Positions 2,003 to 63,228 of a stretch of 64,000 bases of DNA are shown piece after piece. This stretch comes from Eledone cirrhosa. Taxonomy: Eukaryota. How positions within the stretch are numbered: position 1 is the first letter of the stretch; the number at the start of each line of letters is the position of its first letter. The position numbers were made by a program, and so were the translations under genes. The notes under the pieces are model-generated. The model was given only the letters and a program-made list of their open reading frames with translations. It had not been told where the DNA came from and ran no database searches. The DNA is taken from NCBI GenBank assembly GCA_964016885.1, contig OZ024740.1, positions 121,520,001-121,584,000 on the forward strand, read 5' to 3'.

Positions 2003-2041
2003 TGAACCTGAAGATTGCGAAAGCATGAAAGTACTTGTTCA
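2003..2041 (+). ncRNA. Minimal type I hammerhead ribozyme motif
   Basis: tgaac-CTGAAGA-t-tgc(gaaa)gca-t-GAAA-gtac-TT-gttca: 5-bp stem I, palindromic stem III (agtact), CUU triplet. Confidence 0.8.
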
Positions 2042-3146: not shown

Positions 3147-3340
3147 GGCGGTGGATTGGCAGTATCGGTAGAGGGTCGGACGCCATGCTTTGCAGCAAAG
3201 AGTTACGGCCCTTTATGGTCTGAGTTCAAATCCCGCCGAGGTTAACTTAGCCTTTCATCCTTACGGGGTCGATAAAATAAAGTACCAGTAATACACTGGG
3301 ATAATTAATGGCCTTGTGCCTAAAGTAGAAACAATTATTA
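3147..3340 (+). mobile_element. tRNA-derived SINE (octopus-type), preceded by a duplicated tail at about 3105-3146
   Basis: A-box-like tggcagtatcgg, B-box gagttcaaatcc, core gcctttcatccttacggggtcgataaaataaagtaccagt, tail gccttgtgcctaaagtagaaacaattatta; several copies in the window. Confidence 0.85.
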
Positions 3341-4279
3341 ATTTTAGTAAAATAAAATAAATTACAGCGGTTTTCAAAAGAAATATATATAGTCACTAAC
3401 ATTTTAAAGAAGATATTAGGAGAAAGTATTATGTATTAAAATTTGTACTCTTTTCGCAAGCCTTGTTAATTTTTCTGATATTAGAAATATAAAAGTAAAA
3501 AGTACATTCAATAAACTTTACTCTTTCGCTAACTTTATGATTTGATATTTGTATCTATGAAACCTGCCAATTTAAGATATATGCCTTACTGAAATAAGTG
3601 GATTCCATATATATATTTAACTGGATATCATATTGGTGAGACCTAGTAAAACCTGATGTATTTGCTATTGACTTTATTACTATGCAATGAATACGAGTTA
3701 AAATAAATAGGTGTCAACAGTTGAACTATTATTGGTACAAAATAAACAAATTCGAGACCGATTCTCACTTTGATAGAGAGAGAACAAATGGACGAAAGTA
3801 AAGAACATATATACAGACGCTCACACACACATATACATACACACACACACGCACACACACACACACACAGACACACACACACACACGCAAACAACCCCCC
3901 CCCCACCCCCCACTTCCCATACATACACACACACGGCTGCATATCTCATGCGCAAACCTGTTGGGGTGAATTTATGCTCACAGGGGAACTGACATTCGCT
4001 TCATGAACATCGTGTTTGTCCGTTCCGTTGTCACTTCAATGTGGATTACCTCCTGATGTTCAGCTTATTATGTAGGAAGCTGTCAAATGAGGTCAAGGCA
4101 CTGGGTACTACGCGGAATCACGTGGCGACTGTCATCGTCGAAATATGTATCACAGCCTTATCAATAAAGGACTTTAATATCTAACCTACTTTGTATTTCA
4201 TTATTCTAAAAATACTCCGTCCTTCCAAAGTGGGGAAATGTACGTTGAGTTCTCGAATTGAATTACATCAATGTTTACG

Positions 4280-4315
<36 letters not shown>

Positions 4316-5068
4316 TATATGTGTGTGTGCAATTTTCTATATGTGTCTTTATGTTTGTGTTTGAAAAATGAAATGAAATTTACATCTATGAATATTTCGT
4401 GTTGGCTTCTTCCCAGTTGCATGAAGTGATGCTCATCAAATGAAAAGCAAAACCCTTATATGTTAAGCCAACATTTGTATGATAAACGTTTGTTTCACAC
4501 AATTCAAAATATATGAATAGAGATTTATTATGGTTTACATGGGGCATGCTTTTCATAAGACGAGTCAATTACCAACTCGTTTGATGAAAGGAATCTCCCA
4601 ATTAAACTATAATGAAATGGTATATCTAATAAAGAGGCATGTTTTAAAACCTAACATAGAGAAAACGTATCGAGAATATATTCTATGCAATCATTAGAGC
4701 TAAAATCAGTTATAAAAATTATATAAAATGAAACTTTTGGTTCGTTTTTTTGTGGAGATCTTTTACATTAAACATACGCACACAGGCGCACACACATGGA
4801 CACACGAATATATATATATATATATATAGTTTTGCGCGGTTTTTTATATGAAATTGTGTGTCGAATAAAATATTGTTATACTTGGGGAGGGTCATATTGT
4901 TATAATAATATTGCCAGAATTAATAATAGATCACACTTACTGTTTGGTTGGTTTTCGCTTCTGTATCTTTTATATCAGTTAATTTATTCGGTCCTCAATG
5001 TTTACCATTGACTGACCAACGGTCAAAAATACAGATATAATATAGACACAAACATATATATATAGTCT

Positions 5069-5110
5069 ACCAAAGTTCTTTCGTTGCACATCTGCAATAT
5101 CGTCAGTGGT
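5069..5110 (-). ncRNA. Minimal hammerhead ribozyme motif, slightly degenerate
   Basis: Minus strand reads acca-CTGACGA-ta-ttgca(gatg)tgcaa-c-GAAA-gaac-TT-tggt. Confidence 0.6.
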
Positions 5111-5154
5111 GCTATTATGTTTCCTCCTGTTGTATTGTATGTCTACGCCATAAA

Positions 5155-5409
5155 GATATCTTGATTTAAAACTGCACTATCCACAAGTGTTTTTTAACCT
5201 TCATATCATGTCTTCCTGTTTTATCTGATGAAAACACAAATATTGTTGCATGATGATATTTGTTTTTGAAATGCGCATAATAAAATACATGGAACTCTTT
5301 TAACCATCTTTGTTCTTATATATTATGTATACTCCAGTTCTACAAACTGTAGAGTGCTTCTTATCCGATATCTGCATTGCTTTATTGTACTACAATTAGA
5401 CTCACCTCC

Positions 5410-5412
<3 letters not shown>
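5155..5412 (+). mobile_element. PLE pseudo-LTR-like repeat ending in (TA)n; same family as 17516-17944
   Basis: Closely matches the reverse complement of 17516-17772; contains a hammerhead motif. Confidence 0.8.
5219..5285 (+). ncRNA. Type I hammerhead ribozyme motif
   Basis: ttttat-CTGATGA-[aaacacaaatatt...gatatttgttttt]-GAAA-tgcgca-TA-ataaaa: 6-bp stem I, palindromic stem III. Confidence 0.85.
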
Positions 5413-5487
<75 letters not shown>

Positions 5488-5661
5488 CATACATATATAA
5501 ACTACCGTATCATGTCGGGGTGTAACTACACAGTTAGAAAAAGGTATTCAATAAGTTGGTCGACTAGAGGCATCTATATTATTCATAGAAATGGAACAGT
5601 TCCAGTACTGTAGAAGCCATTTCAATATACAACAAAGATACATGCATGCACACACACGCAC

Positions 5662-6743: not shown

Positions 6744-7106
6744 ATAAATTAATAAAAACAATGAATAAAAACAAAGAAACAGTTCCTTATATTAAAAAAT
6801 TCATCATTTTACGATCGTTTCTAGTATATATATGTGTGTATTGGTATGTGTATCATATAGATCTATGTACAACTTTTACAAACTATCAGAGGAAATATAC
6901 ATACCTACACATATATAAGATGTCTTCAGAAATATATATGTGTAGGTATGTATATTTCCTCTGATAGTTTGTAAACACTTTACATAGATCTCTATGATAT
7001 ACCTACCAACACACACATATATATCGTAGAAACGATCGTAAAATGATGAATTTTTTAATATAAGGAACTGTTTCTTTGTTTTTATACATTGTTTTTATTA
7101 ATTTAT
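6744..7106. mobile_element. Palindromic PLE pseudo-LTR-like insertion
   Basis: Arms 6744-6917 and 6933-7106 around a 15-nt loop; both arms carry GAAACGATCGTA; right arm ends at (TA)n. Confidence 0.75.
6806..6933 (-). ncRNA. Hammerhead motif with about 100-nt stem II
   Basis: Minus strand reads attt-CTGAAGA-[long imperfect stem]-GAAA-cgatcg-TA-aaat. Confidence 0.6.
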
Positions 7107-7120: not shown

Positions 7121-8038
7121 ATATTTATTAAAATAACAGATTAAAGTTTAAGCAAAAAATCGCTGCTTTCACCCTTAACGGGATCTTCTGAAACGAGAAA
7201 AATCAATCTGTGAACGCAAAAGTGAATATTTCGAAAAACGTTGCAACCGGAGGAAGATAGGAAGACGATAATTTGGTTCGTGGAAAGGTTCTCTGGCAAA
7301 AAACGGGAAAAAACGAATATAATACGTCATTATTTTAGGCGGTGAAAAACAAATTACACACAAAGACAAAACCACGTTTATGGTATAAAAGAAGTTGTAG
7401 ACTAATATTCTATTAGGTGGTTCATAGAGACGTTCTCTGGCAATGAACGGAAAAAACGAAGATAATACGTCATATGTGGAGCGTGGAGAACAAATGAAAG
7501 CAAAGACAAAACCACGTAAACGGTATAACTGAAGTCGTAGACTAAAATTCTAACTAGGAAACTAGTTATTCTAATCTCTGAAGCCGAGAATCATTCGGTT
7601 TCCTAGTTAGAATTTATAGTCTGCGACTTCAGTTATACCATTTACGTGGCTTTGTCTTTGCGTGCAATAGTTCTCGTCGCTCCACATATTACATATTATC
7701 TCGTTTTTTCCGTTTATTGCCAGAGAACGTCTCTATGAACCACCTAATAGAATATTAGTCTACAACTTCTTTTATACCATAAACGTGGTTTTGTCTTTGC
7801 GTGTAATTGTTTTTCACTGCTCCAAATAATGACGTATTATATTCGTTTTTTCCCGTTCTTTGCCATGGAACGTTTCCACGAACCAAAGTATCGTCTTCCT
7901 GTCTTCTTCCGGTTGCAACGTTTTTTGAAATATTCACTTCTGCGTTCACAGATTGACTTTGTTAGTTTCAGAAGATCCCGTTAAGGGTGAAAGCAACGAT
8001 TCTTTGCTTAAACTTTAATCTGTTATTTTAATAAATAT
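7121..8038. repeat. About 0.9 kb imperfect palindrome with an internal tandem duplication in each arm; probably PLE pLTR-derived
   Basis: Arms 7121-7562 and 7598-8038 with a 35-nt spacer; unit ttctctggca...gtagacta at 7289-7411 and 7434-7551; (TA)n on the left and at 8126 on the right. Confidence 0.8.
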
Positions 8039-9344: not shown

Positions 9345-11965
9345 TAACTTTCGGAGGGAGCCAAAGCTGTTAGCTGGGCCCAAGTGGCAGAGGCGAGAAG
9401 TGGCATCAAATCCACAATTCGGTCTTTGCAAGAGAAAGATGGACGCATTATACATCCAAGCAGATGTGCACGGCCTTCCAGCAGCATTTTGCACAACTGT
9501 TCGGGAAAAGAGGTACATCGAGCGAGGTGATGGACTTCAGCTTCTACCTCGACGGCGTACCGCGACTCTCAAGCACGGATGCAGAGAACTGCGAAAGGCC
9601 GATCACAGCGGGTGAAATAGAAGATGCCCTAGGCCGCGGCGGGAAACGCAAATCTACCGGTTTAGATGGTCTACCCAATGAGTTTTACATAAGCATGCCA
9701 GACTTGTTCTCTGGCATCCTCGAAGCGGCCTACTGCAACTGGCAGCAGAACGGGAGTATTCCCACTCCTGTAGGCAGTGGCGTAGTAACGCTGATCAGGA
9801 AAGATGAGAACAAGGGGGATAAGATAAGCAATTTCAAGCCCATAACTCTGCTCAACACAGTGTTAAAGATTTTAGCCAAGGTGTTAGCAGCAGGGCTGGC
9901 GCTTGTCTTCGAGAACCTGGTAGGAGAAACACAAAAGTGTGCAACGCCAACCAGGTCCATGCACGACAACCTCCACCTCATGCGATACATCATAGCGAGG
10001 GTAGGGTGTAAACCTGACTTTTGTGGGGCTCTGATCAATTTAGATCAGTCTAAGGCATTTGATAGGGTCGACCATCAATACTTGGAAGCAGTTCTCAATG
10101 CGGCCGGCTTCGGTCCCATCTTCAGAGGCTGGATCGCTGCCATGCACACCAGCATCTGCTCGGCAGTCAAGGAGAATGTCTACCTTTCAGAACCATTCCA
10201 AATCATGCGTTCCATCCGTCAAGGATGCCCTCTCTCCTCCATTCTGTATGTACCAACTCTCGAGCCGTTACTGCGGAAGTTGGAGCTGTAGCCGGGCATT
10301 CCGATCGAACCAGGACTGCGGAAAGCAGCGTAGGCCTGTGCCGACGACATAACCGTAATGGTGTCGAAAACCTCGGAAATCAGGGTAATCGGCAACCTAT
10401 TACAAGAATACGAAACGTTGACAGGAGCAAGAAAACGTCTAAACAAGTCTGTCGGTTTGCAACTCGGCACATGCAGAGGCAAACCCATGCCTTCCGACAG
10501 TGTCGTTGGACGCTGGACGGAAGGACCAGTGAAATTGCTCGGTGTCTGGTTCGGTCCAGACCTCCAGGTGGACAAGAACTGGAACGAGGTCACGGAGAAG
10601 GTGTTTGCACTCACTCAGAAGTGGGCTGAGCGCATACTCTCCTTGAAAGGTCTAGCGGACGTGGCGAACACTTACATAGCGTCCATCATCTACTACCGCT
10701 TGACAGTCGTGCCTTGACTCCGCGAATAGCTTACCAAAATGGAACACCTACTCTTCAAGTTCCTCTGGAAGAAACAGGCTTCATTGGTGAGGAGATCCAT
10801 CTGCTGTTAACACCCTTCTAACGGAGGGCTGGGCATGCCGTGGCTGATGATGCGCAAACATGCACTGAGGCTACGCCATCTCCAGGTATTCCTGACCGGT
10901 GAACCGGTGTGGCTGTCTTTTAGGAGACAAGCTCTTCCACAACTCGTCTCACTAATAGAGCTGCAGTCTTGGTTCAAGCGAAGGCCTAAAATGAGTGACT
11001 GGCACCTCGAGTGCCTACGGGCACTCACAGCCCTCTACCAAGCGAAAACGGCAATCAGCGGAGACTCCACTTCGACATTCTATAGAGGATTAGTGGAGGA
11101 TAAGTGCGACGACGTTCTCGGGGAAACTCTAGGCATCGAGGAGGAAGAACTGACCAGTCTGTTCGGGAGGACTTTCCGTCCAGGGCCTATGGATAAATTC
11201 CAGAAATCAGTGGCCTGGCACTGCGTTCTACCAGTTCGAGACAAAATCTACAGGCATGGACGCCCTGGTAGAGATGCTTCCAAAAGGACCTGCCCAAGAT
11301 GCGAACAGGAGATCGAAACCGTTCTGCACGCAATTGTTTAGTGTCCAGGGGTGACCGACCTGTGGAATTAAGTCGAACAGCTGCTATCACGTGTGGGACG
11401 CATCCAGTTGTCAGCCGAGCCCATCATGAGGATCACCCCACCGCCTTCATTTAAGAACGAAGGAGAGGCTGCTTTCCTCTGTCTGGTGGCTATGGCGAAA
11501 GAGGTAATATAGTGGACGAGGTTAACAGGACTGAGGGCAAACACCTTTCTCTCCGGACAACAACTTATCCCCTTCTTTAAGTATCACTTCAGAAGGGAGG
11601 TGAGAGTGGAGAGAGAGGTGCTACACCCCAGTAAATTTGCTGAAAGGTGGGTGAATGTGGCGAAAATGGCCCAAGTGAATGGGCCATCTATGTATATAAA
11701 TCTGTAGGTTGAGGAAGATAAACAGAGGGAAGACAGGAACACCTACAAAACATGTTCCTGGTATTGACAGTTGTTCTATCCACCGGGTGTAAAACAACCC
11801 TGTAAAACAACCCTGCAACGTTCCCCCCTACTGGGGATTTCAATTGTTATTTTATTATATATAATTTATTGTTATTTATTAAGGTTAAAGTGTTTTTATG
11901 TAAAACCCCCGCCGTCACCTCTTGTAATGTCCCATTTTTGTACGCCCCTGTGGCAAATAAAGAAA
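9345..11965 (+). mobile_element. 5'-truncated, degenerate L1/Tx1-type LINE (RT, C-terminal CCHC, 3' UTR)
   Basis: ORF pieces with KSTGLDGLP, FKPITLLN, LDQSKAFDRV, RQGCPLS, CADD and CPRC-ETVLH; 3' end gtggcaaataaagaaa resembles the ends at about 56640 and 58620. Confidence 0.9.
9464..10291 (+). pseudogene. Tx1-type reverse transcriptase fragment
   Basis: Non-LTR RT motifs in a 275-aa ORF ended by a premature stop. Confidence 0.9.
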
Positions 11966-14792: not shown

Positions 14793-14991
14793 CTGTGTGT
14801 GTGTATTATATATATATATATATTTGACATCGACAGCTATTACGCTTCAATAACCCCGGAACTGCTCAAGAAAGCATTAACCCTAGCCAGCACCAACTCG
14901 GACATAACTAATAATTCCTAGGCATACCATCAATGAATTCAACGGAGAAATCTGGACTAGAAAAGATAGAACAGACAGCTTTGACATCACG

Positions 14992-15930
14992 ATGGGCTCA
15001 AGTGACTCTGCGCAAATCACCGATTTACTTGGAATTTACCTATTACATAACATCAGAGCCGAAATCCAACCCTTGCAAGGCGGAATATACAGGGACGATG
15101 CCCTATTTGCAGTCCACAATTGCACTAATCGGGGCATTGATTTGCTAAAAAAACAATTACATAGATTCTTTAAAAATAACGGTCTCTTTATCACCATCGA
15201 GCCGAACCCAAAAGTAGTAAACTACCTAGACGTCACCCTTGATCTCAACAATAACCTATATTACCCTTACCATAAACAAGGTGAAATGCTCATATATATT
15301 AGCCCACACTCTAACCACCCACCGGCAGTCATCAGAGCAGTAATCAAATCTATCTCGTATAGGATCTCCATGCTATCAGCAAATGAGGAGATATTTATAA
15401 ACCATGCACAATATTATAATAAGGCTTTTTCTGAATCTGGTTATGAACAATCCATTTATTACATACCTAAATGCCATAACACAGCAATTCACCATAACAA
15501 ACTTAACACTAGAACTAGAAATACCGTAGCATATAGCAAGATTCGCCGGAATTTTAGCAGTAACAGCACCTATACAGGGAAGTTTAATGGTGGCAGTGGC
15601 CTGCTCCCCACTCCAAGTAGCAAACTAAAAATCAACCCGAGAATAGGAATGAGAAATGGGATGACAAATAACAAATCCCCATGTAATAATAACCCTAGGA
15701 AGGCCACTACCAACTCCACTAGAATCTCTAGAAGGAATAGACCTATAAATATCACCTGGCTTAACCCCCCATTCTCAACTAATCTAGCTACTAATATCCC
15801 TAAACGCTTAAACTCTATCATATCTAAACATCCCCCCCCCCCCCCCCCCGCAAAAAAAAAATATATATATATTAAAAACTCTTTAATAAAAATAACCTTA
15901 AGATCTCATTCTCCACAACACCTAACCTAG
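14992..15930 (+). pseudogene. PLE reverse transcriptase core and thumb
   Basis: YRDD catalytic motif; frameshift near the C/A homopolymers at about 15832-15861. Confidence 0.9.
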
Positions 15931-16937
15931 ATAGCCACATCGCATTCAGCAACCATCATAAACTAAGACAGTATAACTCCCACACCGCGGCACCACCACC
16001 ACTATCAAATACACCACGCCATTACACCATTACTTACTCTAGTCGCACACATCCCCCATCTAATCCTTCTAGCACTCACCAACCGCTTAGGCTAAACTAC
16101 CCTACTCTCTCTAACTGCAGAAGCAACTGCAACTGCCGTTACCCTAATGTATGTCCATTAAATGGACACTGCCTGACACCCAACATAGTCTATAGGTGCA
16201 CGGTTAAAACAGATTCGAATACCAGCTCTTATATCGGGTCTACCGCTAACCGTTTTAAGGTACGCTATAACGCCCACTCTTTTTCCTTCCGAGACCCTAG
16301 CAACAGATGTTCGACATCTCTAGCTAGGCTCATTAAAAACATTAAATCAAGCAACATTGAACACTCACTAAAATGGGATATCGTAGCTAGGGCCCAACCG
16401 TTCAATGGACGAAGAAAATCTTGTGATCTCTCTATTACGGAAGCATATTACATAACTCTATCACGACCTCTACCGATTAACGATAGAACGGAGGTAACTA
16501 TTAGCTGTCAACATCGAAGGGCTAATTCCTTCACTAATATAATATTTGACCCAACATAGTCATCTAGCCCCATTTTTACTTGTAGCTAATAAGTTAAATA
16601 GCTATAACTAACTTAAATAATTCTAAGTTACCTCCACTACATTGTCTCTCAATTAAAACATTTAAAAATTAGCACTTAACTATAAACTACCCGCAATTTC
16701 TAATCTCTCGAGGAGTTACTTCCCCTGAAACCACCCTCTAATTAGTAAGGTAAATATGTCCTTTGGCGGCCATATTGTTACGCATAGGCAGATATCACAG
16801 AATGCAGCCTCGACAGATGAATACTGCTTGATTATGGCTGACAATTGATACAACCTGGACACCATAGTGAAATACCAATATATGGAACATTACATTATGT
16901 AACATTCTCTCCTTATTTTAATTTATATTCCTTTGAA

Positions 16938-17055
16938 GTTCTGATGAGCCACTCTGTTTTAAATATGTTAATTATTTTCAACTGAACCAGATCAAAAATG
17001 ATATATAGTCACCTGATCCAGAAATATTATATGGAGTAGCGAAACAATTGTAAAC
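16938..17055 (+). ncRNA. Hammerhead motif in PLE 3' pLTR with long stem II
   Basis: gtt-CTGATGA-gccactct...ggagtagc-GAAA-caattg-TA-aac. Confidence 0.8.
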
Positions 17056-17077
17056 GGACATTATTTTTATTAATATT

Positions 17078-17200
17078 ATTCTGAGTTCAAATCCCACCGA
17101 GGTTAACTTTGCCTTTCCTCCTTACGGGTTCGATAATATAAAGTACTAGTAATGTACTGAGTAATTGCTGGCCTTGTGCCTGAAGTAGAAAGAATTATTA
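17078..17200 (+). mobile_element. 5'-truncated SINE
   Basis: B-box, core and tail as in the 3147 copy. Confidence 0.85.
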
Positions 17201-17480: not shown

Positions 17481-17519
<39 letters not shown>

Positions 17520-17642
17520 GGAGGTGAGTTTTATTGTAGTACAATAAAGCAATGCAGATATCGGATAAGAAGCACTCTACAGTTTGTAGGACTGGAGTAT
17601 GCATAATATAAGATCAAAAGATGGTTAAAGGAGTTCCATGTA

Positions 17643-17709
17643 TTTTATTATGCGCATTTCAAAAACAAACATCATCATGCAATAATATTTGTGTTTTCAT
17701 CAGATAAAA
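17643..17709 (-). ncRNA. Type I hammerhead ribozyme motif
   Basis: Reverse complement of the motif at 17838-17904. Confidence 0.85.
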
Positions 17710-17837
17710 CAGGAGATCATGATATGAAGGCTAAAAAACACTTGTGGATAGTGCAGTTTTAAATCAACATATGGATATGTTGATTTAAAACTGCACTATC
17801 CACAAGTGTTTTTTAGCCTTCATATCATGATCTCCTG

Positions 17838-17904
17838 TTTTATCTGATGAAAACACAAATATTATTGCATGATGATGTTTGTTTTTGAAATGCGCATAAT
17901 AAAA
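17838..17904 (+). ncRNA. Type I hammerhead ribozyme motif
   Basis: ttttat-CTGATGA-stem II-GAAA-tgcgca-TA-ataaaa. Confidence 0.85.
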
Positions 17905-17936
17905 TACATGGAACTCCTTTAACCATCTTTTGATCT

Positions 17937-18005
<69 letters not shown>

Positions 18006-19224: not shown

Positions 19225-19543
19225 AGAAAACGAAAAATCAGTGATGCATCTGAACTCAATTTATTGTGTGTTACAATTGTTTCGCCGGCGGACAGCTCGA
19301 GACGCAATCATTGTGTGGATCTGTCTGATTCTGGATCCGCGGGTTCGACCAACACGTCAAATGATTTCGGAGCATATTCTCCCTGAGAGAATATGATCCT
19401 AAATCATTAGACGTGTCCGTCGAACCTGCGAGTCCAGAATCAGACAGATCCACACAATGATCGCATCTCGAGCTGTCCGCCGGCGCAACAATTGTAACAC
19501 ACAATAAATTGAGTTCAGATGCATCGCTGATTTTTCGCTTTCT
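19225..19543. mobile_element. Palindromic PLE pLTR-like insertion with only the 3' half of a hammerhead
   Basis: Arms about 155 bp around loop cctga (19382-19386); G(A/C)AA-caattg-TA-acac in each arm. Confidence 0.75.
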
Positions 19544-19586
19544 TATATATGTATATAAGTAGTAACACAACAGTTAGTTCACCATA

Positions 19587-19627
19587 CCGAGAACAATTGT
19601 TTCACCTTATGCGGATCTTCAGCTCGG
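19587..19627 (-). ncRNA. Minimal hammerhead ribozyme motif
   Basis: Minus strand reads ccgag-CTGAAGA-t-cc(gcataa)gg-t-GAAA-caattg-TT-ctcgg. Confidence 0.8.
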
Positions 19628-20302
19628 ATTGGTAATGGTTATACGGAACAGGATGAACAACCGTATAAACTCGCATGCTCTCTTGCCGAAAGCCTGAAGC
19701 TTGTCCTCTTCAACAGCAATGCAACACATCTGCTGTAGTTTAGGAAGCTGTGGTCACTTCAAACCGACCAAATAAACCACAGGAAGTCAAATCCTATGTG
19801 GGTCTGGCGGAGGGCCGATTTAAGGAACGCTTCTTCCTGAACCACCAGTCGACATTTAGTTACCCGGACAGACGTTCATCCACGAAACTCGCGAGCCAAG
19901 TATGGTCCCTCAAGGACTCAATTATAGACTACTCCATTCAATGGAAAGCCATTACTAAGTCCATGCCATACGCAAGGGGAAATCCGTCGTGTGGACTATG
20001 GAATTGATGAACGAATAAATATTCTAAAGAGATTATGCAATATCGATTGCCTAAACATGAAAAATGAATTCTTCACACGTTGTCCACACGTCTCGAAACA
20101 CCTCTTACGTAACTGCAAAGCTCCGGGTTGAATTACAACAACATTCTAATTTTCTAATGAACTCGAAAATTTTGTTCCGGACACTCGCACTTATCTCCTT
20201 ACAATTTTCGCCGGTGGTTTTGCATTGCTTGGGTGAAGTGATCGTTTCAGCGCATGCGCGTTTATACGGTTGTTATTCGTGTTCCGTATAACCATTAATA
20301 TT

Positions 20303-20343
20303 CCAAGCTGAAGATCCGCATAAGGTGAAACAATTGTTTTCTG
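20303..20343 (+). ncRNA. Hammerhead motif with eroded stem I
   Basis: ccaag-CTGAAGA-tccgcataaggt-GAAA-caattg-TT-ttctg. Confidence 0.6.
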
Positions 20344-20740
20344 TATAGTGAACAAACTGTTGTGTTACTACTTCTACCAAATTCGCCCTATTGACTGAGT
20401 GCTCTACCACTACCGATATTACCTTCTCGTGTTCTACCTCTCACCCCCCTCTCTCTCTCTCTCTCGCTCTCTCTATATATATATTCATATATATATATAA
20501 ATATATATATATATAGTCTGTTTCTAGCTGCTTGGCGTTTATCAAAACCACACAATCCACTGCCTCCGCCGAAAATTATAGAAATCGCCTTCTTATAGAA
20601 TTCCATTAATAATCATACGTTATATTGCAAAATAAACTATTCATACATTCATGTATAGTTCGCTATTTCAGACCAACTATACTAATACCTAATTTTTGCT
20701 GAACCGAAAATCGCTCTGTATAATCAACATAATATGTAAT

Positions 20741-22290: not shown

Positions 22291-24476
22291 TAAAATTGAA
22301 AATGTAGAGAATAACATGGTCAACAGTACAAAAAGGGGAATTTATTGACGGTCTAACAATTGTTTCTCTGATAAAGTTGTGTAAAGCAGTGCCACTCAAT
22401 TTCAAATACAATTTCAAATACTTAAGGCAGGCCATAAAGAGAGACTCAAATACCTACCAGATACAAAAATAACAAGACACTTAATATTAATAACACTATC
22501 CACACGTATAGAAGCAGCAGTTTTATGACTAAATATAGAAAGTGGCAACAAGCACGTAAATTAAATGAACAGAATACTCATATAAAGACCACTAATAACT
22601 CGAGAAGATGCAGAAATAGAAACTACTTATGGTTCAATCCAATGTTTGACTCCTCTATAAAAACAAAACTACCTTACACTTTCTTCAAATTGGTTGACAA
22701 ACACTTCCATAAATTCATAAATATCATAAAATCTTTAATAGAAAAACTATCAAACTATCATACTACACTGCCAACAATATAGAATCGCACATACATAACA
22801 TTAACTATAAAATAATTTATAATACAAGTAGCCCGCAAATAAGTACCATAACACCAAATACAAGTCATAAGCATATATCATCATCACAACCAAACACACA
22901 TCAGAACACATCACCACAATACATCAACAAACCCAATTCTCAACCCATACATAACAACCTACAAACAACATATCGAAGAACCGGCACATAAAAAAGCATC
23001 TAAATGTAACTGCCATCTACCTGACAAATGCACTTTACAAAATAGATGCCTAGAGACAAATATAGTATACCTATTTACTATAGATTCAGGTAGCTTAGCA
23101 TGGAATTACATTGGTTCCACAGTTAGGGAGTTTAAGAAAAGGTGGTACGTCCACAGTTACTCTATGATTAACAGGAACCTCTCAAACACAACAACTCTCG
23201 CCAATAATATCTGGTAACTCAAGAATGAAAACAACGAATATAAAATCAGCTGGACGAAGCTATCAAATTGTTATGTACCACCGCGGTCTCTGTAATATGG
23301 AACTTTTCTAAATTTTAAATTACAACAAAATGCTTCTTAACAGTAAAATAAAAAAAATTGTTTTCTTTGGGCATAGGTCGGCAACCAAATTTGAGAACTT
23401 TAGACCAGCTTAATTTCATCTTATCTATTCCATAAGCCTAATTATACCACTTAGATCTATTATAATATCACATCATCATCATTATTATTATAAGAATTAT
23501 CATCTATCAATGAACAACATCAAAACCTCTTATATTTACATTCTTATTTTATATATCTCTATCTTTCTCTCTCTATCTTTATATTTCTTTCCCTAAATTT
23601 ATTTCATCTCTGGCATTTTATTTTCATATATTTTACTATATAATATAACTTACAACTAATTAATTTATTTATTTATTAAAATAACCAATACACACATAAA
23701 TATATTTAACATTATCATATGTATACCTTCATGTATCTCTGTGTATTGTAGCCATTCTCAAAAACCACTCTCAATAATCTTAATATGTTTAAATTTTCTT
23801 CGCATATTTTTACTTTTTTACTTATTTATTTTAATATTTTAATATTTTCAATTTTCGTTTTTCACATTTTATACCTTTTTATATCAAATTAGATATAATT
23901 TATTTATTTATTTATTTATATATTTATTATTATTTTTATTTACATTTATGCATGTATTAACGTTTATTCATTTATTGTTGATATCATTATTTTCCCTCTA
24001 TTTTACTTTCTCTCCTACGTTATTTCTCCTCATGTTTTTTTCTTCTCTTTCTACCATCACTTTTACATATATTTTCTTCTCTCTATATTTTTCTCTGTAT
24101 TCATTTCTCTTTCTTCCTCTTCTTTCTGTGTTTCTTTTTCTTTTTCTTTTTTCTTTTTCTTTTTCTTTTTCATTTTCTTTTTCTCTTTTTTCTTTTTCCT
24201 TTTCCTTTATTTCTCTTCTGTATCTATCTCCCTTTCTTTCTCTTTCTTTCCCTATATCTTTATTATTAATATTATTATTGATGATGTAAATCGAATTAGT
24301 AAATTTGCCGGTTATATATATATTTATAATACTTTCTGAAGATCTGATCGAGCTAGCACTGTATTTGAAAGTGTTCAATAATTTTTAGACAACATTTTAG
24401 AAACAATTGTTAGACTGTAAATAAATTCCACTCTTTTTACATTTGGACCATGCTATTCTCTACTTTTTCAATTTTA
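22291..24476 (+). mobile_element. Degenerate Hydra-type PLE 3' part with inverted pLTR
   Basis: WFNPMF...FFKLVDKHF; CNC-x5-C-x5-C at about 23004-23050, then IVY...NYIGSTVREFKKRWY.H; arms 22291-22412 and about 24358-24476. Confidence 0.85.
24333..24414 (+). ncRNA. Degenerate hammerhead motif
   Basis: ttt-CTGAAGA-tctgat...GAAA-caattg-TT-aga; the inverted left arm retains atcaga, which would close stem II. Confidence 0.55.
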
Positions 24477-43819: not shown

Positions 43820-46800
43820 ATGATTATTATTATAGTTGCATTTATCTTGCTTTATGATCATACGAGTTATCACCAAGTCACAACCAGTGACCTCAAGAGA
43901 CAACAAGGTCCGCCATGTTCAAGAAAGAACATATATACACGCACATGCATCTTTAGGTGTTTAGACTTGTGGTGTACTTATATTGACAGAATCTTCATTA
44001 GTATATAGGCAGTTCCCATTAGTACTATAGTTTGTATTTCTCCTATACGCGGATTTCCTGGGATTTGCGATAAGTAATCATTAAACCCCTTAGGTATCAT
44101 TCCTAGAGTGCCTACAATCACTAGTATTGTTTTAGTTCTCAATTTCCACAATTTTCCAATTTCAATCTCCAGGTCCTTATACTTGCTCAATTTTTCAAAT
44201 GTTTTTATAGATACATTCTTGTCTATTGGAACAGACATATCAATTAGCAGGCATACCCTCTTTTTAAAGTCCTTCTGTATTATAGCAGGTCTATTTGCAT
44301 CTATTTTTCGGTCTGTTTTGATGCTAAAGTTCCACAAGATTGAGATGTGATCTTTTTCAAGTATGGGAGATGGTTGATGCTCCCACCAATTCTTTTGATA
44401 GGGCAGCACAAAATGCTTACACATTATCCAATGTATGTATTGTGCAGCTCTGTCATTCCTGTTTAGGTATTTGGTTGGAGCTATAGGATTGCACATTGAA
44501 ATTATATGACCAATTGTCTCTGGTTGCTTTTTACATACACGGCATAATGGGTTCCATCCATTTTTTATTATGTTGGCTTGGTAATTTTTTGTTTGCAGAC
44601 ACTGATCTTGTGCTGATATAATCAGTCCTTCAGTCTCCGATTTCAGTCCAGAGGATGCCAACCACTGATGGGTTAAAGTTTTGTCAACATCAGGATTGTT
44701 AGCTCTTTCTTCGGTATGTTCCATACATAGGCTTTTCTTGCAATTTCTTAGCCAGTTTCTGTAGCAGTTCTTTCTTTGCAGTTACTTTTACCTGCTTTGC
44801 TTATTCTTTGTTTTCTATTTCAGCAGTAAATGGGACTTCTGAAATGGGTAGTCCATTACTGTATCTTTGTGCATCTTTTGTAATGGAGTATGATCTTTCG
44901 TGTTTCAAAACGAGTTTAGTCATCCAATCATGTGATTCCCTAAGATATGTAGATAATCCAATTGTTAAGTTTTCAAAGCAATATCTAACTGGATTAACCC
45001 ACGTCCTCCTTTCCTAGGGAGATATATTCTATCTGTATCTGCCTTAGGGTGATGCATTCTGTCATGGTTAAGTTTTTTCTAATTTTTGTATCGAGCCTAC
45101 GGATCTCTATGCTTGACCAGTTGATGACATTGTAACTGTATGTTACTACTGGTATGGCAAGCGTGTTTATGGCATCGATCTTATTCCTTGCATTTAATTC
45201 CGTTCTTAAGATTGCTCTTACTCTGCGGTAACATTCCTTCCTTATCTTTTCCCTCATTGTCGAGTGCTTGATCACGTCTCCTTCACAAACACCTAGATAT
45301 TTGTAAGATTCCTCTTGATCAAGTTCTCTTATCACATTCCCCCGATCAAGATTAATGTCTGAACTTTTCAGCAGCTTTCCTCTGGTGAATGTTGCTTTGG
45401 CGCATTTATCTAGTCCAAACTCCATTTTAATGTCATCACTGAACTGCTCCATCGTGGATAATAACCCTTGCAATTGTTCATCATTTTTTTCAAGTAGTTT
45501 CAGGTCATCCATGTAGAACAGGTGATTAATGGTTTTGTCATAGACATTATATCCATGTTTTGTTTCATTGAGCATTTTATATAAATGGTATAAGTGCGAT
45601 GCAGAATAAACGCAGTGATAAAGAGTCACCCTGAAAAATTCCACAATTAATATTAACTTCTCCAGCTTCCAGTGATTTTTTTTCACTATTCAAAAGGAGT
45701 GTCGTTTTCCATGTCTTCATACTGAATGACAGGAATTCCTGACAACGGGAGATATTTTGAAAATCTCTCATTTTTCAAACCAACTGTGTGGCAAACTATC
45801 GAATGCTTTTTTATAATCTATCCAAGCAATTGATAGATGTGTGTGTCTATTATGACAATCTTCCAGTATCATTTTGTTAACCAAAAGCTAAACCTTACAG
45901 CCATAGGAGCTTCGTTTGCACCCTTTCTGCTCATTGGGAAATAGATAATTTGTTATCAGGTGGTCATATGTATATTCAGTTAGGACTGATGTTAAAATGT
46001 TATACATTGAGGTCAAGCAAGTTATCGGTCTGTAATATTTGGGATTGTTTGTCTCATCATTCTTCGGAAGCAGGAATGTTAACTAGCCATGATGCTATCT
46101 TTTCTGGCTCCTTAACTATTTCATTGTAAAGTTGGGCTAACAGCTCATGAGACTCTGGGAACGCATTTATCCAACAATTTGGTATTTTGTCTTTTCCTGG
46201 GGATTTCCATTTGCTGGTTTTTCTAAGAGCGAAACGCAACTGTTCAACTGTTATATTTGTCCATATTTGTTCCTCGAGGCGAGCTGTATCTTTCATTTGT
46301 CTGTCTATCCATTGGGCATGTATATTATGAACTTTTTCTCAGGCCAAGATCTTTTCCCAGAATTCTTGCACTTCCTCCTTGGGTGGTAATGATTTAGCAG
46401 TTATTGTTGACTTGCCATTTTTTTTGTAGAAGTTTCTTTGGTTGTTTTTGAACATATTATTGTCCTTATAGAATCTAGATCGTTTTTCAAAGCGCCTTAC
46501 ACGAGCAGCTTTGGCCGACACTTTTTGCTTGATTATTTCTATCAGCATGTCTATGTCACTTGTTGATTTTATACTGTATTTTCTTTTCAATCTTCTAAGT
46601 TTAGTTTGTTTAACATGTTCACCTACTTTGTAGTTTGTTAAAATTTCTATGTCAGATCGGAGAAGGTTTATTTGGCGATTGATGTTCTCTTGCCAAGTAG
46701 GTTTCTTGTGGGAATTCCTTTGTTTTTTCATCTTCACTCCACATAAGTGAGTGGTGACTTTAGCCGATGCATAATAGAGATGATTTAAATCAGTAATGTT

Positions 46801-47740
46801 TAGTTTGTTTGTGATGATAATGTTTTTGAGAATTATGTTAGTCTTTTGGTTCTGTTTGGAGTTCTGGATCTTAGGGAGAATGTCTCGTTCCCCCATGTCA
46901 GATTCTTTCATTTTCATCCAGTCGATCATAATTTCATCCGTCAAGTTCGCAGGTTCGTTCTCATTCATTTCTTTATCATTTACGATCTCATTGTTTTCAT
47001 ATTTGAGTTTCATCTTGAGCATGCACTCCCTCCACTTTTTCGATCCTTTATTTCATTTGTTCTGTTGTCAGTGATTCCGCTCCAACCCTGGGATTCGAAG
47101 TGTTACAATTTACTGCGTTTTCACTGACACATCTTTCATTTTCCCTACGCTGCCTTTGTGCTAATAGCTTGATCTGATCAATTTCTATATCAGTTAGTAA
47201 CTTTTTAACAATATTTCCTTGTATATTGGCTAGTTTGTTACTGTCAATACAGCCTCTGTTTTCGGGATGTTTCTTTTTCCAGTTGATATATGTCTGTTCA
47301 TGGGTATTACATGGCAGTGTAGAGAAAGCCTCAAAAACTTCTTTATTATCTTCCCTTGACCATTTCTCTCTCTTTTTCTTTGGATTTCTTGGTGGTGAGC
47401 ATGGAGGGCCAACAGTCGGAGTATTCCGGTTATGGGAGGTCTCCAGCTCCGAAGTGATGGGAAGGTTTGAACCATTAGCTGATTTTTCGACCCCAGTCTG
47501 GTTACTCTCTGAGGTACGGGGCCCTTTTTGACCCGGGTGTCGGCCGATCCGGTATGAGATTTTATCATTTGACATTTACTTTATTTTGTCGCGTTTTATC
47601 CTTAACCGCCAAGGGGTAATCATTTCGTGTTACCACTTCTAGGACGAGTGTCAACCAAGACTAGAGGGGTCATCCTCTCCTAGAGACACTGCTATTGCCC
47701 GCCGGCCGCCATCCCGATATTTCTTGGTCAAGGGGTTTTC
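43820..47740 (-). mobile_element. Near full-length degenerate R4/Dong-type LINE
   Basis: ORF pieces 47048-47575, 46339-47022, 46057-46296 (WKSPGKD), 45577-45771 (GIFQGDSLS), 44994-45686 (HLFYMDDLKL) and 43978-44724 (CRVC...HIISMC, IDMSVP, KYKDL); (TAA)n tail. Confidence 0.92.
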
Positions 47741-47819: not shown

Positions 47820-48008
47820 TGGATTGACAGTATCGGTAGAGGGTCGGACGCCATGCTTTGACGCATAGAGCTACGGCCCTTTCCATTCTGAGTTCAAATC
47901 CCGCCGAGGTTAACTTTGCCTTTCATCCTTACGGGGTCGATAAAATAAAGTACCAGTCATGTACTGGATAATTGCTGGCCTTGTGCCAAACGTAGAAACA
48001 ATTATTAA
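47820..48008 (+). mobile_element. SINE
   Basis: Close match to 3153-3340. Confidence 0.88.
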
Positions 48009-48249
48009 TAATATAATATACTTTTTGCTGAAGTTCCCTGTTATTGTTGTTGGCTATATCGGTGGAGGTGCTGGGGCTTTTTCTATTGTTGGTGGGAAAG
48101 GCACCCAGCAGTGCCATAGTCGTTGACATTTGACCGAGTCACTAAGTCAATCTATTTATATATTTTGCTAGCCTCTCCCTTGTCTAGTGATACCGCCACC
48201 TTCCAATTTCTTAAGTTAACAGAAGGTACTGGGGAATAGTTGTGATAGC

Positions 48250-48899: not shown

Positions 48900-51800
48900 C
48901 ACCCGATTTGTGCAAGGACCACCAGCTACGGACGGTGACTTACCGCACTGTAAGCAAAATCTCACATCGGGTGGAGAGAGCCACGGAGGCTCAAATCCAA
49001 AAGGCCTGGGGTGCGCCTGGGCAAGCAAAACCCACATCACCCGAAGCAGAAAGTACGCCACAGTAGACGTACTTTTCGCCACCCCCAAAGTCTCACTCTT
49101 TGGAAACCCTAAAGAGTGAGGAGATAGTTTTGGTGCCCTCCTACTGCGGGCAGAAAATTGTTACGGTCAAAGTGACCCAGGTCCCACCCGACGTGTCCAT
49201 ACCTTCGCTGGCTGCATCTGTCCTTGCTGGAATCGAGAAAAAATAGGGAGAGAGAACTGGTCAGATATAGGCACGCAACTGCTTATGCAAACTGCCCAGG
49301 AATGTATCGACGCTATCTCCTATATCATAGACATAGAGGAAGGACTCCAACTCCCTATAAGTGTAGAAGGAAGACGGCCAAAATGTTATCTCTGTGGGTC
49401 GAAGGGTCACCTCAGGGCCTTTTGACCGAAGAAGACAGCGAAGAAGAAGTCCCCTCTCCTTCCAATACCTGGTCCGCTGTTACCAAGAGCAGGGCAGGAA
49501 ACAAAGGCAGAAGCCCCTTCCACGGTGAGTAGGAGGGCAACGTCCGTAGTACCCGTACCATGGCCACGGACAACTAAAGCAGCATCATCAGTGGCGGCAA
49601 CACCAATAGCTATATTTGAAGTAGCTACACCAGCAACAAAATTGCCGAAGAGGGCTCCACTACCACCACCAACAGCCGTGGAGCACATACCACTCTCAGA
49701 CGCCACAGAATCCGACATGGAGTTTGAGGTGGGAGTGAAGTGGCAAACGGTCTGCCACAAAAATGAAAAAAGAAAAAACCCTTAGATTCACACTCCAAAA
49801 GCGAAGGCATACAATGAGGGGTAAAGGGAGAAAGGAAACTTGCTGCAACACCACCACCATCACCACCACAAGCACCACTGACAACAAAAACAACACCACC
49901 TCCAGCATCACCAAAAACATCAACAACACAAACAAAACAAGACACACACACCAAACAGTAACAAGAAGAAAACAGCAATAAAATCACACCTCACCTCAAA
50001 AAGTACACAGCCATAAACATGGCAAAAAAATAACTCATACAATATATAAAACAGCACACAGACATCACAGAAAAAAAATACTACACCCCACCAACACCAA
50101 GAATTCTCCCGACAAATATAAGCATCATTGAAATCTCACTAGAACAGTACAAACCTTTAAAACAAAAATTCCCCAACGCAGTTGGAGACTTATGAGGGTC
50201 GGTTACCAAGAGGATATACACTGACATCCTCTTGGAAACACCCATGACCAGCGAAAGGGACGGTTCTGCTGTCCCTTCACCACACGATCAAGGTAAGTGA
50301 CCCTTTCTCACTTGCCCCGTTTCTCATCCAACAAGGCCGTACTCAGAATAGGCAGTATAAATGCACGTGGCCTGGGGTCATCTTGGAAGCATGGTCACCT
50401 GCTCAACGACCTCAGGTCACTAAACACAAATGTGGTGGCCATCTGTGAAACCAGAACCTCCGAAGCACAAGCCTTCGCACCGATCTTCGGCGGCTACTAT
50501 GTATACGCATCTCCCAGCCGTCCAGGACCGGAGCGAGGGTTTTCCGTCCTTTTTCGGAGAGGCTTGGATCTCGCCATACGGGCCATCTTCCTAGACACAG
50601 AAGGTAACTCGGTGGTGCTGGACGTGACCGGCAGCGAAGGCAATGCTTTCAGGCTAGTAGCCGTGTACGCCCCAAATGGGGCAGGGCGGCCAGATTCTTC
50701 AGACGTCTAGAGACCTTTCTTGGAACGTACCTTTAGTGGGCGACTGGAACGGTATCTTGGATGCACGCTGGGATTGTGTGGGGCTAGTGCATAGGGGAGG
50801 AGGGTGCAAGAGCCTCACCAACCTGCTCCAACCGTTTTGAACTGTCTGACAGGTATCGACTGGATCACCCAAATGTGCCAATGTGGACATGGACAAACCG
50901 CATCGGATCATCGAGATCGTATCTCGATAGGGTATTCTGCAGAGAACTGGATAAGGCTAGTATTAGTTGTCCACAATTTAAAATAGTCGACTACACAGAC
51001 CATAAATTTGTGATCTTTGAGATCGACATAGACGAACTTCATAGACAAGGACCCGGTTACTGGAAGCTGAACGCGTCTCTCCCGGCGCGCAAAGCCTTCA
51101 GAGGCCTGATTAGCGTATTCATTAAATGGGCGTTGACGGGAGCGGTCGTCAAAATCAGGTGGTGGTTCGCCCTGAATATGGCTATTAAAGTAGAGTCGAT
51201 TAGGTTTAGCAAAGGACAAGTGATAGAGGACAATAGAATAGAGGGAAAGCTAGAAGAGGCGATTAGGACAAGCATCGCAACCGACGTGCTTGGGGCGAGT
51301 TTGGCACTTGACCAGTTCTTCAACGCAAAATACAAAGGCTGTGTTGTCAGAGCTAGAGCGCGTGCTCTGAAACACGAGGGGACAAAAGCCGTCCAATGAG
51401 CCCGCGTGGCAGAGGCGCGACGTGGCAACAAAGCCACAATTCGGTCTTTATCAGACCAAATCGGGCGCGTGTTGCTCGAACACGAGCCGATGTGTGAGGC
51501 TTTTCAGCAGCACTTTGTTGAACTGTTCGGGAGCAGCGGCGGGCCGGATCGTGGCATGGACTTCAGTGCATACCTCGACTGACTGCCTCGGTTCTCGACG
51601 ACTGCAGCACAATGTTGCGCAAAGCCAATAATTGCCGGTGAAATACGGGGAGCGATGGCTAACTGCACGAGGGTATATCGCCAGGTTTGGATGGTCTGCC
51701 CTACGAACTTTATGCATTTATGCCAGACTTGTTCGGTGACATCCCGACAGACATCTACTGCAACTGGCAGCAGAACGGGAGTATTCCCAGTTTTGTGAGC

Positions 51801-53850
51801 CGGGGAGCGGTGACGCTGCTGAGAAAAGACCCGAACAAGGGGGAATTTATCGATAACTTCAAGTCCATAACCCTACTAAACGCAGAGTTCAAGATTTTGG
51901 CCAATTATTAGCAACGACGTTGGCACTTGTCGTCAAGGGCCTGGTGGGAGAGGCGCAGAGATGAGCCATTCCGGACAGATACATACACGACAACCTCCAA
52001 CTCATGCGATATATCATAGAGAGGGTGGTTAAGGAACCTGGCCTGGGTGGGGCCTTGATCAACTTGGAGCAATCCAAAGCATTCGAACGGTCGACTATCG
52101 GTATCTGGCAGCGGTCCTCGAGGCAGCCGGTTTCGGGCCCGCTTTCAGGGGTTGGATCGCTGCGATGTACAGCGAGATCTGCTCAGTTGTCAGGGTGAAC
52201 GGTCACCTGTCGCAGCCGTTCAGCTTCATGCGCTCTGTCCGCCAGGTTTGTCCCCTCTCGACCCTCTTGTACGTATTGGTTCTCAAGCCGCTACTGCACA
52301 AACTGGGGGTGATGAGGGGCGTCCCACGCGAACTAGGAAGCAGGAAATCCGAGTCGGCTTGCGCCGACGACGTCCCCTACGTTGCGTCCAGCACCAGACA
52401 CGTCCAGATGCTCGGCAGCGCTCTCAAGGAGTACGATCCGGTGACAGGAGAAAAGATAAACCAGGAAAGATCGGTGGGCTTGCTGCTTGGCACCTGTAGA
52501 GGCAAGACCATGCTGTCCGACAGCGTCGTTGGGCTTTGGACAGACGGACCGGTTAAATTGTTCGGGTTCTGGTTCGAACCGGGCCTCCAGGTGGATAAAA
52601 CTGGAGCGAGGTGACGAGCAAGGTGACCTCCCTCACCCAGAAATGGGTCGAGAAGAAGCTGTCCCTGAAAGGCCGGGCGGAGGTGGCGAATGCGTACATC
52701 GCCTCTGTCATCTGCTACCGCCTCACCGTCGTCCCTTGCTCCGGCCCAACTCTCACCAAAATGCAGCGCCTCCTCTTCCGATTTTTGGGGAAGGGACGCG
52801 CTCCCATTGTCAGACGATACATCTGCTGTCAACACCCGTTGCGTGGTGGACTAGGCATGCCATGGCTGATGATGCGCAAACATGCGCTGAGGCTGCGATA
52901 TCTCTGGTGCTTCCTTGACGGTGAACAGGTGTGGTCGCCGTTCGCCAGGCACGTTTTCCCACAGCTCGTCTCCTAGAAATTGGAATGTCTCCAGGCACTC
53001 ACCGCCCTCTGCCAGCTGGGCTCCAGTATCGGTGGAACATCCACCTCGGCGTTCTATATAGGACTAGTAGTAGGGAAGAGCGACGACGTTGCCGGAGAGA
53101 TCCGGGGCGTCGAATAATATCAGCTGTTTGCTCTCATCCGGAGAATTTTGAGTCCAGGGCCTATGGATAACTTCCCAAAATCCCTGGTCTGGCAGTGCTA
53201 CAGGGGAGCGTTGCCGGTTCGAGATAAGCTCTACAGGCACGAAAGTGCCGTCAGCCAAGCCAGTCCGAGATACGCGCAGAATGACGAAACCGTGGTGCAC
53301 GCACTCGTTCAGTGCCCGAGCATTGCTGACTTGTGGAGCTATGTCGAACAGTTGCTGTCGCGTGTAGGACTGACCCGGTTATCGACTGAGTCCATTGTGC
53401 AGATGGTCACGCCGTCTTCCTTCGAGGAGAAAGGGCAGGCGGTTTTCACTTGCCTGGTGGCCATAGCAAAAGAGATTGTGTGGTGGACAAGGTTGAAAGG
53501 GTTAAAGACAGACACTTTCCTCTTCGGCGAATCCCTAATAAACTTTTTCAAGTTTCACTTGAAGAGAAAAATCAGGGTGGAGTAGCAAGTGCTACCCTCT
53601 AGCAAGTTTGTTGAAAGGTGGGTGAATGTAGCGAGAATGGTCCGAGTGAACAGGACCGCTCTGAATATACGCCCGTAGTTTGAGAAATGGAAAAATTGAG
53701 AGAGGGCGCTTGCTCTGGTGGTCACGGTGGCCGTGGTCTTTTGTGTGGTTTCGCCACGAGTAAGCCCCGGAGGTTTCCCTCCTATTGGGGAATTTTTCAT
53801 TGTTTCCATTTTCATTTTTATTGTTTATATACATATATGTTTCTATGTCT
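48900..53850 (+). mobile_element. Near full-length degenerate Tx1-type LINE (ORF1 remnant; ORF2 APE, RT, CCHC)
   Basis: ORF1 zinc-knuckle remnant EGRRPKCYLCGSKGHL at about 49370-49417; APE motifs SINARGL, VYAPN, GDWN, SYLDR, TDH; RT motifs DGLPYE, CPLS, CADD; many stops and frameshifts. Confidence 0.9.
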
Positions 53851-53856
53851 TTAAAG

Positions 53857-56655: not shown

Positions 56656-56659
56656 ATTC

Positions 56660-58634: not shown

Positions 58635-58928
58635 AATCATTATTATTATTGCTATTATTATTATTGTTGTTATTCCTTGAATCTCAGTCATTGATGTTGG
58701 TTAACTGGAAAGTCCGTTGGAATGAATATCAAGCCACTACCTGCAGCCTCAGATATTCAGGACGTATCGGAGGGTTCTTGCTGTTCCAAGCAAGCATGCC
58801 TTTTGAAGCGTTCCAAAAAGCGTGAAGGGGCCGATTTTCTTTAACCATCCCTGGAAACTTTTGGAGATAGTCCCCAGTGCGCCTATGACAATCGGGATCA
58901 CTTTGACTTCATGGCAGTTCCAAATCCT

Positions 58929-59438
58929 TTACACCTCCCACTTTAGGTCCTGGTATCGGTTAATTTTCTCCCTCTCCTTCTCTTGCACTCTCGTGTCGAA
59001 AGGGCAGGCCACATCCACAATCAGACACGATCTTTGTTCTTTGTCCACAACCACCAGGTCAGGTCTATTGTGTTCCAGTTTTTTGTCCGTCTGTATCCTA
59101 AAATCCCACAGCACCTTCACCTGATTGTTCTCCATCACCGCCTCTGGCCTATGCTCAAACCATTTCTCAGAATGTGGTAAATTGTTTACTTTGCACAGGT
59201 GCCAGTGGATCACCCTGCCCATCACATCGTGTCTCCAGCCCTTATAGTGGGTCTGGGCTAGGTGTTTACACTCGGACACAATGTGAGCCACAGACTCCTC
59301 TCTCTCTCCACAGATCCTGCACAGTGGGCTAGCCTCCTCCTTGTAAATATGATGCTTCAACCACTTCGTTTTGTGGGCCTGCTCCTGCGCAGCCATTAGC
59401 ATTCCTTCTGTAGCCTTTTTGAGGTCTCCTCTTCTCAA
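58929..59438 (-). pseudogene. CCHC zinc knuckle and restriction-like endonuclease
   Basis: CRICGEREESVAHIVSEC, RHD, RPDLVVV, IVDVACP, EKINRYQDL. Confidence 0.93.
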
Positions 59439-62789: not shown

Positions 62790-63228
62790 TGAAGGAGTGG
62801 TGGCGGCGGTGATGGGATAGTGGTGGTAATGATGGCAGTAGTGAGCGGTGGTGGTGAAATTGCCGTTATCTGGCTGTTGTGTTTAGTGTACACAGGTGAT
62901 GAGGTGGGTGGTGTATCTAGTTTCTGGTGTTGGTGAGTTTGGCTGTTCTATATAGTGTAGACAGAGGATAGGAGGGGGGGGGGTTCTTCTTCCATTTATA
63001 GCCATTTTCTTTTTTGGATATACAGTGTACAATACAAAGTTGAATATTTGAATATTTGAGCCTTATAACAATATATTTTGGGTCCGAATTTTTTGGGGCT
63101 CAAGCCGGGTACTTTACGTAGCATTTGTACTAAGAGTTGCTATTTCACAAATGATTTAAATATGTTAAAAATTCAAAACTTACGGGAGCGATTTCATGAC
63201 CCCCGCCACCTCGTGCGTCTTCTTCCCT
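62790..63228. repeat. Unclassified interspersed repeat A, copy 2
   Basis: Diverged direct copy of 48250-48885. Confidence 0.8.

Follow-up and report, generated by a model that had tools for sequence, protein, structure and literature searches.

A head-to-head pair of putative Penelope-like element ends from two unrelated repeat families between (TA)n tracts

Introduction

The pseudo-LTRs (pLTRs) of Penelope-like elements (PLEs) comprise a hammerhead motif, the first ORF codons and an optional tail (PMC3846280, PMC8557442), the latter described as 30-40 nt long (PMC8557442, PMC11167929). In EN+ PLEs (Penelope/Poseidon, Neptune and Naiad) inverted head-to-head pLTRs have been reported, with their 3' ends outward and their 5' ends joined, together with a tail, a pLTR hammerhead, the first ORF codons and a microsatellite target; as far as the accessible text of these reports goes, the inverted arm copies the same element (PMC8557442, PMC3846280, PMC2377424). 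How tandem and inverted PLE ends arise is listed among the unsolved questions in PMC8557442, and PMC3846280 leaves it between models. In vitro, both strands are cut and extended by PAc, a Poseidon element of Anolis, with initiation 111-118 nt into the ORF and with a dimer predicted (PMC11167929). The accessible part of that demonstration concerns RNA of one family only, and neither the joining of cDNA to cDNA nor the use of RNA of a second family forms part of it. Minimal hammerheads of PLEs carry an extra base between 9 and 10.1 and a very short helix III (PMC4209133), and in Penelope the pLTR region contains a promoter, internal to the element, with a defined start (PMC2377424). Two further systems are of interest for comparison: the non-LTR retrozymes, i.e., short repeats without coding capacity that carry a type I hammerhead and are related to PLE pLTRs (bioRxiv 10.64898/2026.07.22.740005), and the PATRR fusions, e.g., t(11;22), in which the halves of two unrelated AT-rich palindromes meet at their centres (PMC4940405).

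The locus described here (4829-5412 of the window, i.e., of the whole 64-kb stretch of DNA that was analysed) is like the inverted pLTRs of EN+ PLEs in the properties listed above, although its first ORF codons are putative, and differs from them in that its two arms belong to unrelated families, are both long and enclose no ORF body. That PLEs have inverted pLTRs, hammerheads and tails and target TA is well established; the present pair stands apart by the origin of its arms from unrelated families. No description of such a mixed-family PLE pair was found in the literature searched, a scope that left subscription journals, Repbase and supplements outside.

Materials and methods

Reads and contigs from 4 of 15 runs (contigs from three, raw RAD reads from the fourth) were placed on positions 4835-5416 of the window at 85% likeness; positions 4829-4834 lie outside the stretch used for placement. 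The runs are cited below as X1, X4, X5 and X13, and the contigs of X4 come from a second species. Depths on 4835-5416 are to be read as sums, from which copy numbers do not follow, and cut sites bias the RAD set. Statements on joints refer to the 15 of 43 listed, and those on loose ends to the 24 of 849 listed. Hammerheads were sought with a relaxed core-plus-stem-I scan and by comparison with Rfam.

Results and discussion

The 64-kb window consists of animal-type DNA rich in microsatellites. The relaxed scan revealed 8 distinct type I hammerhead motifs in it, whereas 50 block shuffles yielded 0.18 on average and never more than 2. The comparison with Rfam gave no hammerhead among the 99 matches for the whole window at E<=1, the other hammerhead motifs of the window being likewise unmatched, and none among the 11 matches for 5040-5320 at E<=10. 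Folding z-scores of the hammerheads of the locus against shuffles were not significant (-1.39 for the left one; 0.23 and -0.30 for the right one). A bacterial promoter scan, with 4 matches where 5.9 were expected, was uninformative.

The locus consists, in this order, of a left (TA)10 tract (4808-4828), a left arm of 323 nt on the minus strand (4829-5151, hereafter L), a 4-nt filler (5152-5155), a right arm of 257 nt on the plus strand (5156-5412, hereafter R) and a right (TA)n tract (5413-5499), the two tracts being the targets into which the 3' ends of L and R run. Each arm is of the long 3' form, and the two enclose no ORF body. The initial annotation had proposed a tail-out pair of two hammerhead families between (TA)n tracts. 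Its hammerheads were recovered by the relaxed scan as type I cores at 5110-5069 (minus) and 5217-5287 (plus), and the unrelatedness of the arms was borne out, whereas its left boundary, a short (TA)n, was misplaced: this run (5054-5064) lies inside L, which extends to 4829 and ends at the (TA)10 of 4808-4828. The corrected boundaries suit the proposed palindrome-like geometry better than those originally given. The best local score between the arms (19) was equalled by 206 of 300 shuffles, and that against the reverse complement (24) by 33 of 300. The possibility that L and R are distant relatives was accordingly rejected, the similarity being no better than chance.

By their pLTR-like anatomy L and R are probably PLE families, an assignment drawn from the hammerhead, the short frame resembling an ORF start, the long and short 3' ends and the TA target; their own ORFs were not recovered by protein searches. 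Insertion into AT-rich or (TA)n DNA and an optional 3' tail, seen as two 3' ends, are pLTR traits that both arms display, with a depth ratio between the two forms near 1:1 in each family (0.47 for L, 0.50 for R). Each arm ends inside a short reading frame located after its hammerhead. The canonical PLE inverted repeat, with both arms from one same element, is not what is seen at this locus. Elsewhere in the window, hammerhead-bearing repeats of other families flank GIY-YIG-like frames (atlas score 0.95 against a cluster in which 31% of the members carry PF01541), and a Pfam search on four PLE-like frames returned one irrelevant weak match only.

Both arms contain a CUGANGA ... GAAA ... UH core with stem I. 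The type I minimal hammerhead of L (5069-5110, minus) has a CUGACGA core, an extra U after A9, a 6-bp stem II and a 1-bp stem III. It is degenerate in this copy, in which G10.1 is mutated, and was overlooked by a stricter scan; 99.7% of X1 depth at 5098 carries the letter that restores the G10.1-C11.1 pair. Helix III with loop 3 reads G-AA-C and is not palindromic in this copy. The type I minimal hammerhead of R (5217-5287, plus) is well formed: its core is CUGAUGA, stem I has 8 bp, stem II is a long hairpin closed by A-U, and stem III is palindromic and of dimer type (UGCGCA). Core, extra base and short helix III, as well as the palindromic helix III of R and the G10.1-C11.1 pair of family L, resemble the minimal type I hammerheads of metazoan PLEs (PMC4209133), from which the A-U closure and length of stem II in R and the non-palindromic loop 3 of L differ, as does the missing Rfam match; cleavage by both motifs is putative.

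L is the pLTR-like end of a high-copy repeat family, with multi-copy depth over 4835-5151 in 4 of 4 runs and unbroken high depth from about 4870 to 5151 in all of them, the second species included; no further copy of the arm occurs within the 64-kb window. The short TA run at 5054-5064 was weighed as an insertion target and rejected, since it is bridged by contigs (X1 record 7, 4948-5097; X5 record 18, 5007-5095; and, barely, X4 record 11, 4987-5066) and since a C at 5055 in 95% of X1 depth makes the run shorter; the run is therefore internal to L. The family has two 3' ends 41 nt apart, at 4870 and 4829. At 4870, 60 X1 and 7 X5 contigs exit into TA-like letters and others carry on, and X13 depth over 4835-4854 is 0.47 of that over 4875-4894, a value on which the edge of the stretch may have an effect. 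The piece between these ends (4829-4869, minus) thus appears as an optional extension of about 41 nt, like the tail of PLEs. A short frame of 49 codons leads to the 3' end of L (4830-4976, minus) and may be the start of the element's ORF. It contains one stop in this copy, at which 29% of X1 depth has a different letter (4920), and an extra 3 nt at 4976 in other L copies would, as judged by eye, supply a start codon. A protein search with this frame, a weak test, gave no homologue.

The 5' side of L is cut off at 5151. L copies elsewhere run past this point into constant T-rich sequence (102,283 X13 reads with an agreement of 0.83, and 5 X4 contigs). The breakpoints of L vary: most L reads continue beyond 5151, a joint 4937/5138 also exists, and a joint 4883/5151, present in a single X1 contig and in 116 X13 reads that share one start, uses L position 5151. 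The 'both' column of the joint table, which settles the orientation of the 5156/5383 joint, fits neither orientation for the 4883/5151 joint; going by prior expectation, it is probably a same-family L inversion rather than a second L-to-R join. The joints 4937/5138 and 5156/5383, and probably 4883/5151, are asymmetric inversions at other loci, in which one arm consists only of the element's last 30-110 nt. Where L copies elsewhere continue across 5151 (with 5144-5151 on the arm's side), their sequence resembles what we take to be a YY1-type motif, a possible sign of an internal promoter at this point.

R is the pLTR-like end of a second high-copy family. It matches the long arm of a palindrome at 17.6 kb (17772-17517) at 242 of 255 aligned bases, with the first and the last base in common. 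This young same-family palindrome (17517-17941) consists of the long arm, a GG spacer and a short arm from 17775; its arms are identical at 162 of 162 positions, and each begins at the base equivalent to 5156. The family itself is polymorphic, e.g., at 5197, 5218, 5258 and 5298, where about one third to one half of X1 depth has other letters, so that identical arms fit copying from one template. The initial annotation had pointed to this palindrome and to a start shared between R copies, and both points hold; the start may, as it suggested, be the 5' end of an RNA. Two or more further insertions share the R start at 5156: the palindrome, whose two arms count as one event, and an opposite-strand joint 5156/5383 in X13 (98 reads, one start), which has a 34-letter side and a 1-base overlap that fit a tail-out R pair. 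X5 record 19 likewise aligns from 5156.

At its other end, R terminates at about 5321 or at 5412. About half of the depth stops near 5321 (behind 5311, 118 X1 contigs have a loose end; ratio 0.50), and the distance of 91 nt between the two ends exceeds the published 30-40 nt of the tail. An ATG-started frame of 29 codons runs to the 3' end (5325-5411, plus) and may likewise represent an ORF start; it holds one private stop here and is open in the 17.5-kb copy, and its positions 5397 and 5399 deviate from more than 99% of X1 depth. A protein search with it gave three matches, all to repetitive proteins without real alignment. A 17-nt word of R was also followed into metagenomes, where the 118 loci found, with a best R similarity of 40 nt and no L similarity, were taken as chance.

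The filler AAAG is not the upstream sequence of L, and its G may belong to R, given that the spacer of the palindrome is GG. The longest word common to the two 5' ends is 3 nt, and no TA tract lies between the arms. An eroded (TA)n at the junction, which would have indicated two sequential insertions, was not clearly recognized: the filler is followed by ATAT, and the same ATAT opens both arms of the 17.6-kb palindrome. Nor does 5053-5154 behave as a constant upstream part of R, the other objection considered in the initial annotation, since L copies elsewhere possess their own T-rich sequence. Because L has its own constant upstream and because X13 depth is 95,527 over 5135-5154 but 520 over 5155-5174 (0.5% of the left side), L and R together are not a common composite element. 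That they nevertheless form a single element moving as a unit, as the 4883/5151 joint would allow if it were read as a second L-to-R join, is highly improbable, the more so as L runs into its own upstream in two species and the R copies at 17.6 kb stand without any L; it is largely refuted as a common unit, with rare copies being possible.

An assembly chimera between two repeats was considered as well. No record bridging 5151-5156 was present among the 24 of 11,164 contig pieces listed, and the best runs contain 0.72-0.80 of the sampled words and not all of them. Contigs built from short words, however, break at high-copy repeats, and the private differences in both arms, the clean TA ends, the family-recurrent meeting points and the non-homologous filler are presumably unlike a repeat-collapse error, which makes a chimera scarcely credible. 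Among the 40 of 187 variant rows listed, L differs from at least 95% of X1 depth at 9 of 317 sites and R at 5 of 257 (Fisher p=0.59), which is compatible with arms of about equal age.

The reading that we place first, at somewhat less than an even chance, is a head-to-head join from one event in which the ends of a cut microsatellite were each primed on the RNA of a different family. The PLE GIY-YIG endonuclease would cut both strands of one (TA)n, each 3'-OH would prime internally, about 90-150 nt into an ORF, on RNA of a different family, and each cDNA would reach the pLTR 5' point of its family, perhaps a transcription start, before the two cDNA ends were joined via a few non-templated or microhomologous bases. 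We infer all of these steps for the L-R locus. Its outward 3' ends lie 88 nt (R) and about 110 or 150 nt (L) inside the short frames, which fits the PAc reaction, where initiation is likewise internal and near the ORF start and two start sites define the tail (PMC11167929). By analogy with Penelope, an internal promoter and start could explain the recurring 5' points.

Several features of the locus argue for such a single event. Both 3' ends lie in TA tracts, and the degenerate CA-rich repeat left of the (TA)10 agrees in polarity with the CATA repeat that lies to the right of the 5413-5499 tract, as expected for one split compound microsatellite, a weak argument given that the agreement arises by chance in about 50% of cases. 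No TA separates the arms, whereas a solo 5'-truncated PLE at 14824 directly abuts a TA tract. R begins at its recurring start of 5156, a second joint occurs at L 5151 (4883/5151, in X1 and X13), and the arms look similar in age.

A rival is a two-step origin in one microsatellite, in which R would have arrived first, as a palindrome or solo, and L would then have been primed in the left TA and joined by its 5' end to the start of R, with deletion of the left R arm and of the TA. The families concerned all insert into (TA)n and crowd the window, same-family palindromes are the usual starting state, and no cross-family event is required. Non-LTR elements can delete target-site DNA, which also counts for this origin. 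The centre of a palindrome is, moreover, a natural break point (PMC4940405). Yet the deletion would have to stop without any loss at the first base of R, the private differences (5 of 257 against 9 of 317) do not make R older than L, and the junction retains no TA tract. We regard two steps as rather unlikely.

Less probable still is a fusion from centre to centre, in which two palindromes, one of L and one of R, would have been broken at the tips of hairpins or cruciforms and linked by local deletion or exchange, as in human PATRR translocations. The R breakpoint is the exact centre of a palindrome and that of L may be one, going by the 4883/5151 joint; the AT content of the arms is about 68%, the palindromes of the window are spaced 1-5 kb from one another, and PATRR breakage always takes place at the centres of unrelated palindromes (PMC4940405). 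PATRR fusions, on the other hand, lose a few central bases (PMC4940405) where R has lost none, and the halves at the L-R site are retroelement ends whose earlier palindromes are putative. The matching polarity of the flanking repeats and the length of both surviving arms, expected in about 1 in 4 cases by chance if half of the ends are long, further weaken this explanation. The non-LTR retrozymes, in turn, are head-to-tail tandem units (bioRxiv 10.64898/2026.07.22.740005), in contrast to the one inverted pair of unrelated units seen here; tandem head-to-tail hammerhead units are absent from the L-R locus.

The single-event reading may be extended to PLEs in general: double-strand cuts would be filled from both sides with two independent cDNAs, possibly of different families, and inverted ends would be of two-template and not of fold-back origin. 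We consider this generalization doubtful. Against it stand 7 of 30 inter-(TA)n segments of the window whose inverted arms, 55 nt or longer, belong to one family, along with the identical arms of the R palindrome, and the initial annotation, which held that the pair favours two RNPs over fold-back, overstated the weight of one mixed pair against these. The two-step origin and the fusion, which it did not name, would moreover leave an identical junction. In its accessible text PMC3846280 interprets such palindromes as the result of self-priming and describes no cross-mobilization between its two PLE types. Evidence for the single event comes from a single locus at which the empty allele was not seen.

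A mixed-family pair cannot come from simple fold-back of one RNA, but a single locus cannot overturn single-template fold-back, and one locus with three workable histories does not decide between them. If two-template insertion is real, mixed-family pairs would be its genomic fingerprint; if the pair resulted from a later deletion or fusion, PLE palindromes would be fragile sites that rearrange at their centres. Since many families attack the same (TA)n targets, mixed and same-family pairs as well as subfamily marks on the two arms can be counted. The value of the locus is therefore that of a lead: genome-wide counts of mixed pairs and subfamily marks would test how inverted ends form.

Further elements were noted in the window. 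A same-family inverted pair at 1749-2330 carries hammerheads at 1907-1869 (minus) and 2003-2041 (plus) around a central spacer of 37 nt, its right arm being interrupted at about 2075-2228. The 5'-truncated PLE at 14824-17080 has a Cys-rich linker and RT-like and GIY-YIG-like frames, with a frameshift near 15870; it borders on TA at its 5' end, it has no inverted arm, and in the vicinity of 16941-17050 a hammerhead-like core whose stem II is very long was recognized by eye. Classical arrangements of inverted pLTR, endonuclease fragment and pLTR are present at 19554-20376 and 22293-24474, with a hammerhead at 19627-19587. Older long palindromes (arms 88-91%) lie beside TA tracts at 6747-7103, 7121-8038, 19225-19543 and 24935-27419; scans found no hammerhead in them, and the one at 7121-8038 contains internal tandem units of 140 nt. 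Minus-strand hammerhead pieces that run left into TA occur at 27568-27877 and 28021-28881, the latter with a partial tandem repeat; their right halves are unexplained, and both pieces are candidates for further mixed pairs or solo insertions. Broken LINE-type RT/endonuclease elements occupy 9354-11716, 43978-47575, 50300-58400 and 58677-64000, and a short dispersed repeat recurs at 3148-3342, 17078-17200, 37383-37569 and 47820-48009.
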